Shown: positions 1 through 28,599 of the stretch, piece by piece | Position numbering within the stretch: the first letter of the stretch is position 1 | How the letters are laid out: every line of letters begins with the position of its first letter | Source of the DNA: a virus | Taxonomy: Duplodnaviria > Heunggongvirae > Uroviricota > Caudoviricetes | DNA length: 39,324 nt | Direction: 5' to 3' (one strand) | IMG/VR virus record: IMGVR_UViG_2703718821_000011 | The notes under the pieces: model-generated | Told to the model about the DNA's origin: nothing | The model's database searches: none | The model's input: only the letters and a program-made list of their open reading frames with translations | Made by a program: the position numbers and the translations under genes

Positions 1-305
1 TCATGATGAACCTCGGCTAACAAAGTGTTCGCAAGCAGCTGCAAAGCGATCCAGTCCGGTCGTCACCTCTTCTTCGCTGACATTGAGCGCAGGCGCAAAA
101 CGCACCACGTTGCCACCCGCAATCAGTACCATCACGCCTGCTTTCGCCGCTTCCTGAGAGATCTGTTTCGCTTGCCCGGCGTAATCGGCATTCAGTACAC
201 AGCCAATCAGCAAACCTAAGCCGCGAACTTCACTGAACAAACCATAGCGGTGATTAATAGTATTAAGACGCTCAACAAACCAGTCGTGACGCTGTTTAAC
301 GCCAT
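1..305 (-). CDS. astC: Host succinylornithine/acetylornithine aminotransferase (AstC/ArgD family), 3' terminal ~100 codons only; gene interrupted by prophage insertion
   Basis: Minus-strand translation ends ...[96 protein letters not shown], which I recognise as the AstC C-terminus; similarity stops abruptly near nt 305 where phage-end sequence begins. Exact junction uncertain by a few bp. Confidence 0.7.
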
Positions 306-436
306 TAATATAGCGCGGCGATTTTTTTGATACCGATTTGCATTTCATTTGATACTGCTGAAAAACGCCGATACGCAACTTATTTGATACTAAATCGGCG
401 CTTTTCTTTTGAGTTTTAGAATGAGTTTTTAAGCGC
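306..436. repeat. Prophage right-end terminal region with three direct TTTGATAC repeats, candidate transposase end-binding sites
   Basis: TTTGATAC at ~326-333, ~348-355 and ~383-390, between the host junction and the mom stop codon; Mu-family ends carry multiple spaced transposase binding sites. Terminal dinucleotide could not be fixed. Confidence 0.45.
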
Positions 437-1174
437 TCATTCACTCTCTTTCAAACCAGTTTTAACTGTTTGTGGTTTTGGGTAAGGCTGGACTTTGAAT
501 AGCTTTGTGTTGAGGCGTTTTTTGGCCCTCTTGTTCAGAAACCGGATGTAACGAAACTGTCGGAACTTATGAACATTGGCTCTGTCAATATTAGCCCTCA
601 GATGTTCACCTCGTTGTCCGCCTCGTTTAATGGCATTCCTGCAAATCTCGTGATACCACTCGCCATCAAGTTCATAGAATATTGATTCATGGCTGCCTAC
701 ATAATCAAAATTGCTTGCCTGATACACGACACCAAGACAGCCACAACGCTCATCTGCAAACGACTGAACCCACTGTACCTGCGGATAAAGCTGCCTGATT
801 AGCTTGAGCGCGTAACTGATTGCCCTTGATTCGGAGTTTCTCGGCATACAGTCATGCAGCCATAGCCGGTTAAGCTCCATATATTCTCGGTTCTGCGTAC
901 CCGTTACGACGCGTGCACCACTGTTTGGGTTAAGGGCGTAACCCCATTGCATTACGCCAACAAGTTCCCGTTCTGAAAATATGCCCAGATGAAGGTAGGA
1001 GTTATTTACGAAACGGTGGCTGTAATGTTTATTGACGATGACCAGTCTGGCCAGCCAGCAACTTATTGTCTCAACCCGCAACTCACGGGAGCCATAACCA
1101 ACGATATTGTCGTTATAGCGAATAAGTTCAGGCGTGCTGATGATTCGGGATGTGACTTGCTTTCTGTTCCCCAC
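437..1174 (-). CDS. mom: Mom-like DNA modification protein (anti-restriction); true start may be internal to the ORF
   Basis: 245-aa ORF immediately downstream of and overlapping a Com homolog, last gene before the prophage end, exactly as in Mu. Assignment is by position and com linkage, not by recalled sequence identity. Confidence 0.6.
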
Positions 1175-1947: not shown

Positions 1948-2193
1948 TTACATCATAGTACCGTCAGTTCCGGGCTGAACCGGCTCTGGTTGCTCTACGG
2001 GTTGAGGATCATTTTCCGTGCTGTTTTCAGCCGGAGAACGGCCAACCATTCGGGCCAGCACTTCATCAACATATGCGTCGATTTGTGCCTCAAAATCCTT
2101 GCGAACCTGCGCCTTCAGCACGCGGTTCACTTCTTCAGAATAAAGTGCCTGTTTGACAAGCTCTTCAGTAACCGTGCCTTTAATCTCTGGCAT
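1948..2193 (-). CDS. Hypothetical acidic 81-aa protein (cargo)
   Basis: Protein-like composition (MPEIKGTVTEELVKQALYSEEVNRVLKAQVRK...), AAGGAG Shine-Dalgarno about 7 nt upstream of the ATG. No recognisable domain. Confidence 0.55.
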   Translation of the reverse strand: MPEIKGTVTEELVKQALYSEEVNRVLKAQVRKDFEAQIDAYVDEVLARMVGRSPAENSTENDPQPVEQPEPVQPGTDGTMM

Positions 2194-2228
2194 GAATATT
2201 CTCCTTTTGCAGGTATATTGCCCCGTTA

Positions 2229-2411
2229 TCAGAGCGGGGTCGGGTCGTTTGGGGATGACGGTGCCTGTGCTGTTTTACTGAGTTTTTCAGCTGCCGCATC
2301 ATCAATTTTACGGCGAATATAATTTCTGATGACCTTATAACCGCCGCTCACCAGATATAACGCACTGACCACAGCGCAGAAATAAAGCAGCATTGTATGA
2401 ACGAATGTCAT
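2229..2411 (-). CDS. Hypothetical 60-aa small membrane protein (one N-terminal TM helix, basic juxtamembrane segment)
   Basis: MTFVHTMLLYFCAVVSALYLVSGGYKVIRNYIRRK...; AAGG-type RBS upstream; located in the cargo block. Confidence 0.5.
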   Translation of the reverse strand: MTFVHTMLLYFCAVVSALYLVSGGYKVIRNYIRRKIDDAAAEKLSKTAQAPSSPNDPTPL

Positions 2412-2523
2412 ATAACCTTACCTTTGATATTGACTACATAATTCGTTATCGGGTAAAAACATCGAAGCGACTGATAACCACTCCTTCGGGAGTATTTTTA
2501 TTTTCCTTTATGGGTTAGGTAGC

Positions 2524-2559
2524 TCCCGCCAGCCATATCATGACCGGCGGGATTTTTTT
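2524..2559 (+). terminator. Rho-independent terminator on the plus strand (GC stem TCCCGCC...GGCGGGA followed by T7)
   Basis: Stem-loop followed by TTTTTTT on the plus strand only; overlaps the stop codon of the minus-strand esterase gene. It would stop rightward transcription entering the esterase gene antisense. Confidence 0.55.
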
Positions 2560-4567
2560 ATTCTGTTACCGCTTTTTTCACTTCCACCACAATGCTGTCA
2601 ATCAGCACCGGGTAAGTTGCATTTTTGGTGATATCCGTTACGCGGAGTTTGTCCACCGGGAAAGTTCCTACTGGTGACTGCGTCAGGGTAAACGCGGCAC
2701 CATCCTGACCATCAATAACCGGAATAACCTGAAGGCTGTTATTTCCTGCAAAACGGAAGGCCAGCGTATGCCATTCATTATCAAATGCACCAAAGGTTCC
2801 CAGTTTCTGGTTATTTGTTGCCACTTTTGCATTGTGGTACATCACATTCAGGTCTTTTGCGTCTGTCTGGATGTAGAACGATGCCAGCAGATTATTCCCT
2901 GCATCCCCTGTCAGGGTGACACCCTGCGGCAGAGAGGAAACCGGCCAGTAAAGCGCCATGACATACTGGTTTGCCACCAGGTCGCCAGGTACTTTAAAAC
3001 GACAACTGATTAAACCACCATTTTTCAGCAGTTCAGCACCAGTACCGGCATCATGAGCCAGATACCAGGATGATTTACCTGTTTCCTTGGTCAGTTTCAT
3101 TGCCTTACCACCTGTGCCTCCTGCATCACTGATAATTTCAGCTTTACCGCCAGCCGGCTCCCAGCCCTGGGCTTTCAGATTTCCTTCTGACTCACTGACA
3201 CGGTAAGACAGCAGTGTTGTGGTTACTGCTTCAGTTTCAGAAGATGGAACATCGGCTTTTACTGTGGTTCGCCCTGCATGAGTCAGAACAGCCGTGGCCA
3301 GACGGTCAGAAATAATACCCCGGCGCGCCCAGGCACTGAAATGGCTGGCCCGGTCCGCAGATGTCCAGGTAGCGGCACTGTTACGCCACGTTGAGCCGTA
3401 ATAACCAATGGATTCAATATCCGGGTCTTCTGCCGGATTGTTGGTGGGTACATTCACGCCATTTTCATCTGTCATTAATGGAACGAAATGAATGTTTTTA
3501 TCTGTTTTGTTTTTGTAGCCGCCATAGATTGCCTGGTATGCTGGTTCATTTTTCTGTTTCCAGAAATACGTGGTATCGCCACAAATCCACGGAACGCCAG
3601 CAGCACTGCCACCGGTACACTGTTCCGCCTGTTCAGCCAGGTCTGCGCGGAATTTTTCCACCATCGCCAGAAACAGCGCAGAATGCTCCGTCGGCTTCGC
3701 ATCAATATCAAACTCGCCCTGCATCCACACCACAGCAAGCAGGCGGTTTTTCGGGTTCTTCGCCAGTGCCGCTTTTGTCCGGCTGATTAAGTCCTTATAC
3801 AGCGGCTTATCCACACCCCAGCGGGCTGAGTCCTCTGAAGCACCCGTGCTGTCACTGTACGTGCCGTCAGCACCCGCCGTGAATGCAGAACCACCACGGC
3901 AGCAGGGAACCAGCAGAATCCCCGCATCTGCCGGAATAAACGGCAGCAGTTTTTTGGCAATGTGAAGCCCCTGACCCACGGTGCCATATTGCCCTTTAGC
4001 CACATCCGCTTTCGGGTGATTTTTTCCACTCATATCCTGCACATCATGCAGACAGTGGTCGGCCAGAATGATGTCGTTATACTGACAGGCTTTACCTCCC
4101 GGCGTGACTGTACTGCGACGGGCTAACTGCATAATACGCGGTTCGGGGCGGTCATATGTCTCCGGCAGTGGCAGACCTTCACCGTAAGCCATACCGTTTG
4201 ACTGACCAGCAAGAACCACCACGTAATACCAGGAAGGGGAGCTGGAAGCAGTTTCATTTCCTGACGGACGGGTATGTGTTTCAGCATTATCCCAGTCTGA
4301 CGGTTCAGCAGTACCGGCAACATCAGCACTTAACGGAATGACCGCACCAATACCCGCTCCGGTAATTTCCACACTCGGATCACCGGATACTGGCCTTACC
4401 CACAGGCAATCCCGTGTATTAAAACTGATGAGACAGTCAGCAAATGTCATTCCTCCTTTTGTTTCGGCCGGAGGAAAGGGAGCCTCAAGAAATGCCGCTG
4501 TACCACCGGAAACTTTAACAGTAAAGTTTCCGGGCATTGATGATAGTTGAACCCATTTGGACGTCAT
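2558..4567 (-). CDS. Cargo protein: SASA/SGNH-family carbohydrate esterase (sialate O-acetylesterase-like) with an N-terminal ~110-aa domain and a C-terminal ~250-aa beta-rich domain
   Basis: Motifs VVVLAGQSNGMAYG (GQSN block with catalytic Ser) and VVWMQGEFD (WxQGExD block) are hallmarks of the SASA esterase family. No obvious signal peptide. Sits between gin and com-mom, where Mu has no gene. Confidence 0.65.
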   Translation of the reverse strand: MTSKWVQLSSMPGNFTVKVSGGTAAFLEAPFPPAETKGGMTFADCLISFNTRDCLWVRPVSGDPSVEITGAGIGAVIPLSADVAGTAEPSDWDNAETHTRPSGNETASSSPSWYYVVVLAGQSNGMAYGEGLPLPETYDRPEPRIMQLARRSTVTPGGKACQYNDIILADHCLHDVQDMSGKNHPKADVAKGQYGTVGQGLHIAKKLLPFIPADAGILLVPCCRGGSAFTAGADGTYSDSTGASEDSARWGVDKPLYKDLISRTKAALAKNPKNRLLAVVWMQGEFDIDAKPTEHSALFLAMVEKFRADLAEQAEQCTGGSAAGVPWICGDTTYFWKQKNEPAYQAIYGGYKNKTDKNIHFVPLMTDENGVNVPTNNPAEDPDIESIGYYGSTWRNSAATWTSADRASHFSAWARRGIISDRLATAVLTHAGRTTVKADVPSSETEAVTTTLLSYRVSESEGNLKAQGWEPAGGKAEIISDAGGTGGKAMKLTKETGKSSWYLAHDAGTGAELLKNGGLISCRFKVPGDLVANQYVMALYWPVSSLPQGVTLTGDAGNNLLASFYIQTDAKDLNVMYHNAKVATNNQKLGTFGAFDNEWHTLAFRFAGNNSLQVIPVIDGQDGAAFTLTQSPVGTFPVDKLRVTDITKNATYPVLIDSIVVEVKKAVTE

Positions 4568-4666
4568 AATAATCAGCCTGTTCCTGAATAAACTGAATTA
4601 TCATATCCACAGACCGATAAACGCCATTTTGCGTTAATTCAGTAAAGGCCCAACAAAGAGAGCGTC

Positions 4667-5227
4667 TTATTTTTCCGAAACGCTCGCAGGATAATAACGA
4701 TAAAGGGTTGAAAGACCGATATCAAAAATAAGTGCCACCTGTCTTCGACTGACACCCCCGGCCAGTAAACGCCCGACCTGCTCGTATTGTTCCTGCGTGA
4801 GACGGCGGGGTCTGCCGCCGGTTCGTCCCCTTTCACGGGCAGCTGCAAGACCAGCCCGTGTCCGTTCGACAATTAATTCACGCTCCATTTCTGCCAGCGC
4901 ACCCATTATGTGAAAAAAGAAGCGCCCCATGGGGGTTGACGTATCAATGTTGTCAGTAAGACTACGAAAATTTATCCCCTGTTGCTGTAATTCATCTGTC
5001 AGCGCAACAAGGTGGCGCATACTGCGCCCCAGCCTGTCCAGTTTCCAGACCATCAGCGTGTCACCGGGTTTTAGTTTCTTCAGTGCCCGCTTCAGTCCCG
5101 GCCGCTGTGTCGTTTTACCACTCATTTTGTCTTCAAAAATCTGCTCACATCCTGCACATTCCAGCGCATTTCTTTGTAAACCGGTGTTCTGGTCATTTGT
5201 TGATACGCGTATATAGCCAATCAGCAT
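4667..5227 (-). CDS. gin: Gin/Hin/Pin-family serine recombinase (DNA invertase)
   Basis: MLIGYIRVSTNDQNTGLQ... N-terminal resolvase/invertase catalytic motif, C-terminal HTH; adjacent to the gix-flanked segment and transcribed away from it, as in Mu. Confidence 0.85.
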   Translation of the reverse strand: MLIGYIRVSTNDQNTGLQRNALECAGCEQIFEDKMSGKTTQRPGLKRALKKLKPGDTLMVWKLDRLGRSMRHLVALTDELQQQGINFRSLTDNIDTSTPMGRFFFHIMGALAEMERELIVERTRAGLAAARERGRTGGRPRRLTQEQYEQVGRLLAGGVSRRQVALIFDIGLSTLYRYYPASVSEK

Positions 5228-5281
5228 GTATTTACCTTCCTTAAAAAGAGGTGGAAAAGCCTTTTAAAGTAGATATACGGC

Positions 5282-5307
5282 ATCCCTGAAACCTCGGTTT
5301 ACGGGAT
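5282..5307. other. gix-like crossover site (left), 26-bp imperfect palindrome ATCCCTGAAACCTCGGTTTACGGGAT
   Basis: Core AAACCTCGGTTTAC matches the Mu gix / Salmonella hix consensus as I recall it (TTCCTGTAAACCGAGGTTTTGGATAA, reverse complement). Confidence 0.6.
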
Positions 5308-5661
5308 ACGGTAAACAGGGCCGCGAATGCCCTGCCATCAAACGGTACGGCTGTTGCAGCAAGCAGGCTGGCAAATGCCCGCAGAATCAATGGTGTCGCC
5401 TTTGACGGCACGCAGGATATAAACATTACGTCAGGAATGCCGGAATCAACGGCCAATCAGCGTTATGTTACAGGGGTAAGACTGGGAGCGCAGGCATTAA
5501 GCGGCGGACTGGAATATAATTACTCCCTGTCATCAGGAAATGTGATTACCGGTTTTAAGACTGACGGAGACTGGGAAATGCGTGGTGGTGATGACCGTGT
5601 TTATTACAGACAGATACAATATTGTATTAATGGGCATTGGGTATCCGCTGCAAGTATTTAA
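5290..5661 (+). CDS. Silent alternative tail-fibre C-terminal cassette (S'v-like), promoterless in this orientation; would fuse to the constant part of S after inversion
   Basis: Plus-strand frame open from the stop at ~5287 encodes NLGLRDTVNRAANALPS...INITSGMPESTANQRYV..., paralogous to the expressed S segment NLGLRETVNKAADALPS...INITSGMTQSTADGRYV.... Confidence 0.55.
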   Translation, partial: NLGLRDTVNRAANALPSNGTAVAASRLANARRINGVAFDGTQDINITSGMPESTANQRYVTGVRLGAQALSGGLEYNYSLSSGNVITGFKTDGDWEMRGGDDRVYYRQIQYCINGHWVSAASI

Positions 5662-5731
5662 TTAACGGGGGCATAGCACACAGCAGCCAGCATCTGAAAT
5701 ATGCGTTATTTCAGACAAGCATTGCCTGTAT

Positions 5732-6304
5732 ATGGCGATAGTATTATTCCTGTTTTTATCATTGATTTACATGGTGATGTTTATGCAACTGATTAATGTC
5801 AAACGATATTACCCGAAAGACAAACCCTATGGTGAGGATGTTCAGTATTTCCAGAGTGAGGACGGAAGGGATTTTTATGAATCTATCCCGCTTTTTACAA
5901 AGAAATACAAACTCTGTATTTCGCCTGTAACGGGTATTATCTGCTCTGTTGCTGAAGATGTCTCTGCTTTATATCCGGCAGGTTTTACTGTTGTTGAAGT
6001 GGACGAACTGCCGGAAGGTGTGAATATTGACGGTAACTGGCAGTTTTCTGATGGCCTGATATCAAAGGTGCCGGTAAACTGGAAGACGGTTGCTGAAAAG
6101 CGTCGCTCATCGCTGCTCCAGGAAGCCAACGAAACCGTGGATGACTGGAAAACAGAATTAAAACTGGACATGATTAGCGATGAAAATAAATTACAGCTGA
6201 CGCGCTGGATGGCGTATATCCGACAGCTTAAAGAAATGCACTTTAATGATATTGCCAGTGAGGGGCATTACCAGGCGATTCCCTGGCCGGAAAAACCGGA
6301 ATAA
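5732..6304 (+). CDS. Tail fibre assembly protein (U/U'-type chaperone), inside the invertible segment; likely true start near 5783
   Basis: Follows the silent fibre cassette on the same strand; C-terminus ...IPWPEKPE is typical of tail-fibre assembly proteins; position matches the Mu G-segment U/U' genes. Confidence 0.6.
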   Translation: MAIVLFLFLSLIYMVMFMQLINVKRYYPKDKPYGEDVQYFQSEDGRDFYESIPLFTKKYKLCISPVTGIICSVAEDVSALYPAGFTVVEVDELPEGVNIDGNWQFSDGLISKVPVNWKTVAEKRRSSLLQEANETVDDWKTELKLDMISDENKLQLTRWMAYIRQLKEMHFNDIASEGHYQAIPWPEKPE

Positions 6305-6338
6305 TTCAGAGGGTGCATTCAGCACCCTTTTCTGTGGT

Positions 6339-7250
6339 TTACACTGAACTTACCGTTCTCCAGGTATTATGAATATAAATCTGAACCGGGCGATAATAGA
6401 CCCCACCGATATTGTCCGCAGACCGGGAGCCGGTTTCCTGCACGTTAATACCGGAAAGCATACAACCGGAAGGTGCGCTGTAATTCCATGACATTTCATT
6501 GCCTCCGGGTGAATGATAGCTCTGTGCTCCAAGCTGAACATTCTGTACATACCGGCCATCTGCGGTTGACTGCGTCATTCCTGACGTGATGTTGATATCC
6601 AGCGTTCCGTCAAAAGGAACACCATTAATATTTCTTGGGGTGGCGAGTCTGTTTGCTGCCACGGCGGTTCCAGCCGATGGCAGGGCATCAGCAGCCTTAT
6701 TTACCGTTTCCCGTAAACCGAGGTTATCGATAAAGGTTCCTTTGTCCTGGATATCCGCGCCATTCTGGTCCCTGCGCAGGTAACGGTTATCACCTTCGCT
6801 CCTGCTGTAAACATCCAGATTATTACGGGCGGTTTCCGCATTCTCCAGGTCGGCAAGGTTCTGATCCTTCGCCAGGGCATTAACGTCAGCGGGACCAAGA
6901 CTGTTTTTTGTGGCAAGCGTCCCCAGACCAAGATAACCACGGGCCAGACGCTGGGCTTCCGCACCGGCATCAGCAATTTCTTTCAGGTTGTTTTTCCGGG
7001 AAAAGGCATTCGCAGCGATAATGGCTTTAATGGACAGCGTAAGCTGGTTTAACTGCGCCTTATCCGGCTGAATACTGGCTTCAGCCAGAATATTCAGCAG
7101 TTCGGCCTGGAGAATATTCAGCCAGTCCTGACCAATCCAGCTGATACCTTTTTGTCCGTCACCTTCGGTAAACCAGGTGGTGGTATTACTCTGCGCCGGA
7201 GCCAGTTCAGGCATATTCGCCACGCCGGAATTATTATCAACATGGAACAT
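6339..7250 (-). CDS. Tail fibre protein S (constant part plus currently expressed variable C-terminus)
   Basis: Continuous ORF that crosses the right gix-like site at the FIDNLGL codons; variable part lies inside the invertible segment; located between gp48 and the invertase, as in Mu. Confidence 0.7.
   Translation of the reverse strand: MFHVDNNSGVANMPELAPAQSNTTTWFTEGDGQKGISWIGQDWLNILQAELLNILAEASIQPDKAQLNQLTLSIKAIIAANAFSRKNNLKEIADAGAEAQRLARGYLGLGTLATKNSLGPADVNALAKDQNLADLENAETARNNLDVYSRSEGDNRYLRRDQNGADIQDKGTFIDNLGLRETVNKAADALPSAGTAVAANRLATPRNINGVPFDGTLDINITSGMTQSTADGRYVQNVQLGAQSYHSPGGNEMSWNYSAPSGCMLSGINVQETGSRSADNIGGVYYRPVQIYIHNTWRTVSSV
6708..6733. other. gix-like crossover site (right), TTCCCGTAAACCGAGGTTATCGATAA, inside the S coding sequence
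   Basis: About 21 of 26 positions match the Mu gixL sequence as I recall it; inverted relative to the left site. Confidence 0.6.
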
Positions 7251-7810
7251 TAAATATTCTCCTCTTTGTGACTGTTTGCATACACGTAAATAAACGTCTG
7301 CCATGCAGGCTTATAACGGTTCAGAATACATTCCAGCGCACCACCCTCATAAATACGCAGCGGGGTGAGAATATCATCCAGCACATTCATATTCCGGTAG
7401 CCGGTTTCACTGTTTATCGTGACAATACTGACCCACTGTGAATCCGGTGATGGCTGAATATCTATTTCATAACCAAACTCTGCCGCAAACCGGATATAAA
7501 ATTCACGGTTAAGAGAGGGTTTCATCCGGTATTTATTCCCTGCATAACGCTGACGTTCCTGAATGGTTGCGCCGGTCATATCACATTCCGGTAACCCCAG
7601 ATAACGCTCCCAGTCTTCCAGCAGCAGACGGGATGAATCAGGAAAACGTTCTGCCAGCATCTGGTTACCGGTCCAGGAAACACGCTCCGTGGAATGACTG
7701 AGGCCCAGGCACAAAGCCGCAAGAACGGATGACGGCCGCTTATCCCATGCCAGCCCGTCAGGCAGCAACTGCAACAGGGCGCGCTGATGCGGGGTCAGGG
7801 TTACAGCCAT
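7250..7810 (-). CDS. Mu gp48-like tail/baseplate protein
   Basis: 186-aa ORF between the baseplate J-like gene and the tail-fibre gene; Mu synteny. Confidence 0.6.
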   Translation of the reverse strand: MAVTLTPHQRALLQLLPDGLAWDKRPSSVLAALCLGLSHSTERVSWTGNQMLAERFPDSSRLLLEDWERYLGLPECDMTGATIQERQRYAGNKYRMKPSLNREFYIRFAAEFGYEIDIQPSPDSQWVSIVTINSETGYRNMNVLDDILTPLRIYEGGALECILNRYKPAWQTFIYVYANSHKEENI

Positions 7811-20626: not shown

Positions 20627-20802
20627 TCCGGCAGCATAGGCCGGGAATTTTCAGGGCGGGTTTTGCGGGATTTCAGGAAGTGCTTTCAGGGGAAAAATAC
20701 AAAGGCGCTTCACGCAGATTTTAAAGCCCGTTAAATTCAGGTTAGAAAATCACGACACGCGCCTGAAGGGGGTAAGGTAATGCATTTGCATACCTTAAAC
20801 AA
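20627..20802 (-). promoter_or_regulatory. Intergenic region upstream of the protease gene with a TAAGGTA-N11-TACCTTA inverted repeat; candidate late (C-dependent) promoter
   Basis: 176-bp non-coding gap in an otherwise tightly packed late region; Mu has a late promoter upstream of I. Confidence 0.3.
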
Positions 20803-28528: not shown

Positions 28529-28599
28529 TGTTACGCTGTCTCATGATGTTCTCTGAGTCAGCGTAACGGTGAAGGAAAGGCGGCAGGCTTTGCGGAATA

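Follow-up and report, generated by a model that had tools for sequence, protein, structure and literature searches.

We describe a single-chaperone variant of the fiber-switching G segment of phage Mu in a 39,324-nucleotide stretch of viral DNA (IMG/VR record IMGVR_UViG_2703718821_000011), referred to below in its entirety as the window. The window is an Sp18-type Mu-like prophage of Escherichia coli, and its 1.43-kb invertible segment comprises two alternative tail fiber tips and one gene for a tail fiber assembly (Tfa) chaperone, which is co-oriented with the silent tip (tip B) across a gap of 121 nt and convergent on the expressed one (tip A). Gin-type inversion itself is already known, and the new element is the single-Tfa form of the Mu switch. 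We tentatively propose that one generalist Tfa serves every tip and would be transcribed independently of the orientation of the segment, a reading to which we assign a probability of roughly 45%.

The Tfa gene occupies 5783–6304 on the plus strand and encodes 173 aa matching Pfam Caudo_TAP (PF02413) at 2.4e-18 (67 bits, cut-off 22.1) and the Mu U protein (PDB 5YVQ_B) at 1e-15. Within the open reading frame (ORF) 5732–6304, the true start is almost certainly the ATG at 5783, because it is the RefSeq/PGAP start and the point where homologues begin. An earlier note on this DNA, made from the letters alone, had described a single plus-strand chaperone-like gene paired with the silent cassette, and the Caudo_TAP match together with a cassette that falls in frame after the flip bears this out; the layout it drew stands with two coordinates corrected, the Tfa gene almost certainly beginning at 5783 rather than 5732 and the fiber gene beginning at 7250 rather than 7304. 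The Tfa stop (6304) and the fiber stop (6339) are convergent with 34 bases between them (6305–6338), in which a terminator scan located a GC-rich hairpin (6308–6330) that is terminator-like on the plus strand and also present in relatives.

This is the only Tfa gene in the prophage. When the 39-kb window was searched in six frames by tblastn with 11 Tfa proteins and with a Tfa profile hidden Markov model (HMM), down to fragments of at least 15 aa, no second Tfa was found; the sole match was the gene itself (5666/5783–6301, plus strand, profile E = 2.5e-86), and the next best had E = 1.6. The expressed minus-strand fiber ending at 6339 thus has no chaperone gene downstream, as had been noted before, and a second assembly ORF shorter than 60 aa on the minus strand within 5440–6339, which the earlier note had raised against its own view, was found by neither method down to 15 aa. 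Three minus-strand ORFs of at least 40 aa underlie the Tfa gene (5875–6171, 5985–6110, and 6191–6325), all without Tfa similarity.

A Gin/Pin-type serine DNA invertase is encoded on the minus strand at 4667–5227, outside the invertible segment (Pfam Resolvase 1.4e-51 and HTH_7 1.7e-14; 75% identity to SfMu Gin; named ‘recombinase family protein’ in RefSeq). Two 26-bp crossover sites were read from the sequence, a gix-like left site at 5282–5307 (ATCCCTGAAACC TC GGTTTACGGGAT) and a right site at 6708–6733 (TTCCCGTAAACC GA GGTTATCGATAA) lying within the fiber ORF, and they are inverted relative to each other with the same central dinucleotide (GA/TC). In the alignment with 5YVQ_A the right site falls at the position of the Mu Sc/Sv boundary (NLGL(R/Q)ETVN). 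Each site lies at the outer end of one arm (5290–5468 or 6547–6725) of a 179-nt inverted repeat, whose arms are 75% complementary. A site-core search of the window returned these two good gix-like sites and no more, with one weak site-like match at 5177–5190, and no extra crossover site able to re-orient Tfa separately was found in the same search. In-silico inversion of 5294–6721 joins the constant part of the fiber in frame to the plus-strand cassette 5296–5661, giving a flipped fiber ORF of 298 aa when counted from the accepted start (7250) and of 316 aa when the ATG farther upstream (7304) is used, and the fused fiber is annotated by RefSeq in genomes carrying the flipped form. The inverted repeat also produces two spurious mirror-image ORFs (5241–5456, minus strand, and 6586–6783, plus strand), the first of which is the RefSeq hypothetical protein WP_001449635.1.

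The fiber gene (6339–7250, minus strand) encodes 303 aa and as a whole protein matches Mu S (5YVQ_A) at E = 5.1e-49; its start at 7250 (MFHVDNNSG...) is the RefSeq start and aligns with residue 1 of Mu S. The constant, baseplate-docking N-terminal part (Sc; 6722–7250, minus strand) amounts to 176 aa, with fiber residues 1–198 aligning with Mu S 1–191, and the last ∼70 fiber residues align with Mu S 435–503 (domain E 7.4e-5). Between them the ∼240-aa central shaft of Mu S is absent (303 vs 504 aa), there being no significant alignment over Mu S 200–430. Tip A, the expressed variable C-terminus by translation (6339–6721, minus strand), has no co-oriented Tfa, is homologous to Mu S 435–503, and shares 54–62% identity with tips of P2-like H proteins and with one SfMu tip. 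Tip B, the silent alternative C-terminus (5296–5661, plus strand), has 121 codons, of which the first ∼45 are the left arm of the inverted repeat, and it is the expressed tip in three loci (L004, L019, and L021). The two are variants of one ∼75-aa C-terminal domain, the same that ends Mu S, and across relatives we distinguish five tip types (A–E) with 29–44% mutual identity over the last 70 residues, all of which, when aligned with the C-terminal domain of Mu S, show its layout. By the ratio of nonsynonymous to synonymous divergence (dN/dS), 0.09–0.16 for tip A between lineages (at a synonymous divergence, dS, of 0.24–1.56) and 0.17 for tip B, both tip cassettes are maintained as coding sequence, and tip A is functional and under purifying selection because of its low values.

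The inversion switch is active, because the flipped construct made in silico matches real genomes at 100%. Among complete E. coli genomes, the orientation of the window is found in 183 (at coverage of at least 80%) and the flipped construct in 27, with 100%-identical copies of each, and two of the 27 are 100% identical across both junctions. Of the IMG/VR loci that carry the invertase, 14 have an expressed tip that lacks a co-oriented Tfa, and in 6 the linked tip is the expressed one. The order tip, Tfa, convergent tip, with a single Tfa, recurs in all examined relatives that share the invertase, the constant fiber part, and gp48 (3 database loci and ∼30 IMG/VR loci), so the earlier suggestion to look at related prophages returned the one-Tfa layout throughout. 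It spans Tfa alleles down to 60% identity and all five tip types; the Tfa-linked tips are of types B, C, and D, with spacers of 121, 80, and 52 nt, respectively, and the convergent tips of types A and E. Judged by this comparison, the single-Tfa layout is a conserved design and no accident of one strain.

Remoter relatives of the same Tfa clade (∼55% identical) stand in canonical four-gene invertible segments (L066, L080, and L085) in the order tip, Tfa, then convergent Tfa and tip, and the invertase was found in L080 and L085, not in L066. Since a two-chaperone layout thus exists close by, the Sp18-type single-Tfa layout looks derived. In two IMG/VR contigs, apparent frameshifts were seen in the D-type tip cassette (L027, ∼3830–3946) and at the Tfa start (L061, ∼4001–4068); they may represent either decay or sequencing errors. 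The comparative set was drawn from IMG/VR and complete E. coli genomes; a search of GTDB species representatives with Tfa returned zero relatives.

As to which tip the Tfa partners by descent, the comparison favors A-like tips. We retrieved 79 IMG/VR loci with a gene for a tip-A relative, 63 from outside this prophage family and 16 from inside it. Every outside locus (63/63; tips 56–67% identical) has a co-oriented Tfa no more than 200 nt from the fiber stop, whereas all 16 inside loci have a convergent Tfa only. SfMu and Rac-SA53 likewise carry a Tfa immediately after A-like tips. Viewed from the chaperone, its nearest outside-family relatives (53–58% identity; 51% in Rac-SA53) lie 11–18 nt downstream of the tips most like A, and the tips beside them are 56–67% identical to tip A. 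North et al. 2019 reportedly described a fiber-binding N-terminal domain of Tfa and the binding of Tfa to the C-terminal region of the fiber, and we used Tfa residues 1–95 as a proxy for that domain. Between modules with a linked tip of type B and of type C, types only 37% identical to each other, this N-terminal half is 97–100% identical; with tip D, it is still ∼70% identical. On these alignments, Tfa does not co-vary with its linked tip and by descent belongs with A-like tips. The lack of co-variation, together with the A-like partners of the closest outside Tfas, suggests a resident generalist chaperone around which tips have been exchanged.

A lineage that has lost the invertase speaks to the expression of Tfa in the window’s orientation. 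It arose by a single deletion, with one junction common to all copies, in which the invertase and the left site were lost along with almost the entire linked tip; ∼150 nt upstream of Tfa were kept. What remains is a fiber locked to tip A or E and an intact Tfa that converges on it. The junction is present in seven IMG/VR loci (L014–L018, L020, and L025), and probably also in L033, whose sequence is cut off there, and the arrangement is carried by seven complete genomes of different strains at different chromosomal sites (H141–H147; e.g., NZ_CP011018, NZ_CP010219, and NZ_AP022815); CI5, M18, and JE86-ST05 are examples of strains with such a prophage. The Tfa sequence was translated for 7/7 of the junction-bearing IMG/VR loci and bears no pseudogene flag in the 2 of the 7 complete genomes that were inspected; its dN/dS among invertase-less alleles is 0.10–0.23. 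Because Tfa cannot be co-transcribed with the fiber once the invertase is gone and yet has been retained, its persistence argues for continued use and hence for expression of its own. Exactly at the internal deletion joint lies a 10/12 sigma-70-like candidate promoter (ATGATA-17-TATAAT), whose perfect TATAAT is ∼125 nt upstream of Tfa.

Taken together, these observations fit a scheme in which the invertase flips the segment between the two 26-bp sites and so joins the constant fiber part to tip A or tip B, and the Tfa, as a generalist from a clade normally partnering A-like tips, would fold whichever tip is expressed. With the segment flipped, Tfa would be co-transcribed with the fiber from the late operon; in the window’s orientation, it would be transcribed on the plus strand from a putative promoter of its own, which the invertase-less lineage would narrow to the ∼150 nt upstream of 5783, and the hairpin at 6308–6330 would separate the convergent transcripts. 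Expression independent of orientation, one of three options in the earlier note, is therefore the best fit as far as the lack of Tfa–tip co-variation, the A-like partners outside the family, and the intact Tfa without invertase are concerned; its promoter is where the proposal falls short.

The spacer between tip B and Tfa (5662–5782, plus strand, 121 nt) is where such a promoter would be sought, spacers being 52–121 nt in invertible modules vs 11–18 nt in non-invertible relatives, and across B-type and invertase-less modules the last ∼65 nt ahead of Tfa hardly vary, unlike the diverging sequence around them. Several results count against our proposal. The conservation of these 65 nt may reflect a recombination block instead of selection on an element. 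No sigma-70 match of at least 9/12 lies in 5662–5782, matches over the whole segment are at chance (4 found vs 3.2 expected), and the C- and D-type modules have no sigma-70 match upstream of Tfa; the promoter check that the earlier note had called for thus yielded nothing above chance. The late-promoter motif of this phage, which we derived from the sequences preceding lys and I (CCGCAAARCCYGCC, followed after 16 nt by TAYGCT), is not present on the plus strand upstream of Tfa in the window, and no element is common to the B, C, and D spacers. Moreover, dS among invertase-less Tfa alleles reaches 0.43, vs 5–7% divergence upstream, and by this measure the alleles are partly imported by recombination; their purifying-selection signal is therefore not purely in situ, and we rejected the dN/dS of this lineage as proof of in-situ selection on Tfa.

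Two candidates from these scans were set aside: a -10-like TATCAT at 5757–5762, which lies inside the conserved 65 nt and is at most suggestive but was not counted because it has no -35, and a two-mismatch match to the late motif at 5977–5990 (minus strand), rejected because it has no -10 at the right distance. As for a structured RNA in the spacer, there was no Rfam match, and the fold z-score was -0.95. Elsewhere in the window, probable C-dependent late promoters with identical spacing lie at 28582–28595 and 20655–20668 (minus strand), ahead of lys and the protease gene I, respectively; their motifs are similar to the CCCGCACCT boxes that precede the Mu genes lys and I, and the C protein of the window is 39% identical to Mu C.

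The least unlikely of the alternatives is that tips A and E fold chaperone-free, with Tfa made only when the segment is flipped and serving the linked tips B, C, and D. In the window’s orientation Tfa is antisense to the late transcript and no promoter was found for it, tip A is clearly functional, and the fiber is unusually short (303 vs 504 aa) and without a central shaft, so that its folding demands may be lower. A Tfa of this kind would perhaps stay on the fiber as part of the receptor-binding end, the switch then alternating between an assisted or capped fiber and a naked one; North et al. 2019 and North and Davidson 2021 (the latter cited in PMC11915804) reportedly found that Mu Tfa remains on the fiber tip and binds lipopolysaccharide. 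We consider this more specific proposal, in which a chaperone-assisted, possibly Tfa-capped fiber (B, C, D) would alternate with a naked one (A, E), doubtful. If true, a tip class that is chaperone-linked in 63/63 outside relatives would have become chaperone-independent in this family, and host range would depend on whether a chaperone/adhesin is there as well as on tip sequence. Several points weigh against chaperone-free folding: Tfa is immediately downstream in all of those relatives, the window’s Tfa belongs to a clade partnering A-like tips, and all five tips share one C-terminal domain. Nor would chaperone-free folding account for the invertase-less lineage, where Tfa would be useless and yet is intact in every examined copy, with a deletion that ends ∼150 nt upstream of it. 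The earlier option of a tip that needs no chaperone is accordingly disfavored, the tip being homologous to the C-terminal region of Mu S and accompanied outside the family by a co-oriented Tfa in 63 of 63 cases.

The remaining alternatives fare worse. It is improbable that Tfa for tip A is supplied in trans, either by co-resident prophages or by sister copies that flip during replicative transposition. Tfa proteins do substitute across phages, lambda Tfa replacing T4 gp38, and a single genome can have relatives of Tfa at several positions, as many as 7. Lambdoid and P2-like prophages are numerous in O157-type hosts (PMC2669165), but reliance on them would be unstable for a phage that moves between strains, where its integration sites differ (PMC7430833); sister-copy flipping is impossible in the invertase-less lineage, and the constant adjacency of Tfa to the convergent tip would be left unexplained. 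More improbable again is that the window’s orientation is an off state in which the A-tipped fiber misfolds and particles are non-infectious, only the flipped orientation being productive. The absence of a co-oriented chaperone and of a detectable promoter, and the constant presence of a Tfa beside homologous tips elsewhere, would agree with it; however, tip A has a dN/dS of 0.09–0.16, its orientation is the majority (183 vs 27 complete genomes; 14 vs 6 IMG/VR loci), the invertase-less lineage has only such tips and still occurs in several strains at different sites, and Sp18 DNA is packaged efficiently (PMC2669165). The earlier thought of a prophage locked in a non-productive orientation founders on the same points, since the switch is active, tip A is constrained, this orientation is the commoner one in lysogens, and the invertase-less lineage survives. 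Finally, an overlooked second chaperone, as a short or divergent minus-strand ORF downstream of 6339 or elsewhere in the prophage, is highly improbable: minus-strand ORFs of 41–98 aa do overlap the Tfa gene, but they lack similarity to any Tfa (tblastn with 11 queries; profile HMM) and run antisense to Tfa, where the pattern of substitutions agrees with the plus-strand frame.

Tfa chaperones are usually treated as tip-specific and moved together with their tip, an assumption that constrains how the host range of phages and tailocins can be engineered. Nature seems to offer a counter-example in this prophage family, with one resident chaperone gene and at least five tips exchanged around it, and in each phage one of the two tips is on the strand opposite the chaperone. 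Should this Tfa act on every tip, it would be a ready-made generalist that reveals the minimal recognized element; otherwise, a class of tips that normally depends on a chaperone would have members able to fold alone, knowledge that would be equally useful. The family includes widespread prophages of enterohemorrhagic E. coli (Sp18 type), and its invertase-less variants are a natural fixed-orientation control.

The region 4600–7400 of the window is 100% identical to prophages of E. coli O157:H7 and other Shiga toxin-producing E. coli genomes. Late genes follow the Mu order on the minus strand (sheath, tube, tape measure, gp43 to gp48, fiber), then come the invertase, a cargo block, and com/mom; the gp48/YmfQ baseplate wedge gene (7250–7810, minus strand; Pfam Phage_Mu_Gp48 2e-22; RefSeq) lies immediately upstream of the fiber in the late operon. 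The cargo genes (1948–4567, minus strand) separate the invertase from com/mom, which are adjacent in Mu, and encode a 669-aa protein with a sialate O-acetylesterase domain and DUF6645, along with DUF1378 and DUF826 proteins. The esterase, which we take to resemble the NanS-p esterases of Shiga toxin (Stx) phages, is frameshifted in at least one relative. Two records of Stx-converting phages, LC727881 (L003; Stx2c) and LC727895 (Stx1a), contain an entire Mu-like phage of the Sp18-type family inside the Stx genome, with a variant of tip A (80% identical) and a different linked tip, of type C. The left flank of the window (1–444, minus strand) looks by eye like the C-terminus of an AstC/ArgD-type aminotransferase, and a 100%-identical segment in NZ_CP066756 adjoins ydeM; such prophages therefore occupy differing chromosomal sites. 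The site of Sp18-type prophages varies between strains in complete E. coli genomes, as has been reported (PMC7430833). A 2009 paper, which also described efficient packaging of Sp18 DNA, called the genes of the Sp18 invertible region ‘distinct from those of Mu’ (PMC2669165), and we found no description of a single-Tfa inversion system in the searchable literature.

The switch operates in the manner of the Mu G segment and shares the defining features set out below, but it lacks a chaperone gene per orientation and is much more compact. Segments of the Mu G type also have a Fis-dependent recombinational enhancer (sis) in the 5' part of the invertase gene, for which the weak site-like match at 5177–5190 is the one candidate noticed here. 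As in the G segment with Gin, an adjacent serine invertase acts on 26-bp inverted sites with the same central dinucleotide; the crossover is at the same point of a homologous fiber, after ∼190 aa of Sc, and inside the fiber ORF, so that an in-frame fiber results both ways; the tip domain and Tfa are homologous (5YVQ A and B); the module follows gp47–gp48 and precedes com/mom; and both orientations occur in nature. In contrast, Mu has two Tfa genes (S-U and S'-U'), one chaperone per orientation as the earlier note had correctly stated, whereas here there is one, co-oriented with tip B only, and the two tips converge around it with a 121-nt spacer before Tfa. The segment measures ∼3 kb in Mu vs 1.43 kb here, the variable parts ∼330 aa vs ∼125 aa, the central shaft being missing here, and a 3.3-kb cargo block stands between the invertase and com/mom. 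The C segment of P1 with Cin, the P segment of e14 with Pin, and the Min system of p15B are also Gin-family switches that exchange fiber C-termini, and P1 and e14 have one Tfa-type gene per alternative tip. The G region of SfMu is Mu-like, with an invertible fiber segment, and its gp52 tip shares 60% identity with tip A across the final ∼70 residues, but in SfMu a dedicated Tfa (gp51) comes 2 nt after this tip, and the other tip has a second Tfa (gp50) to serve it. In P2-like phages (H fiber, G chaperone) and Rac-SA53, the tips are 54–67% identical to tip A and the Tfas 51–58% identical to that of the window; unlike it, they have no invertase and a single tip, and their Tfa is always co-oriented, 11–18 nt past the fiber stop.

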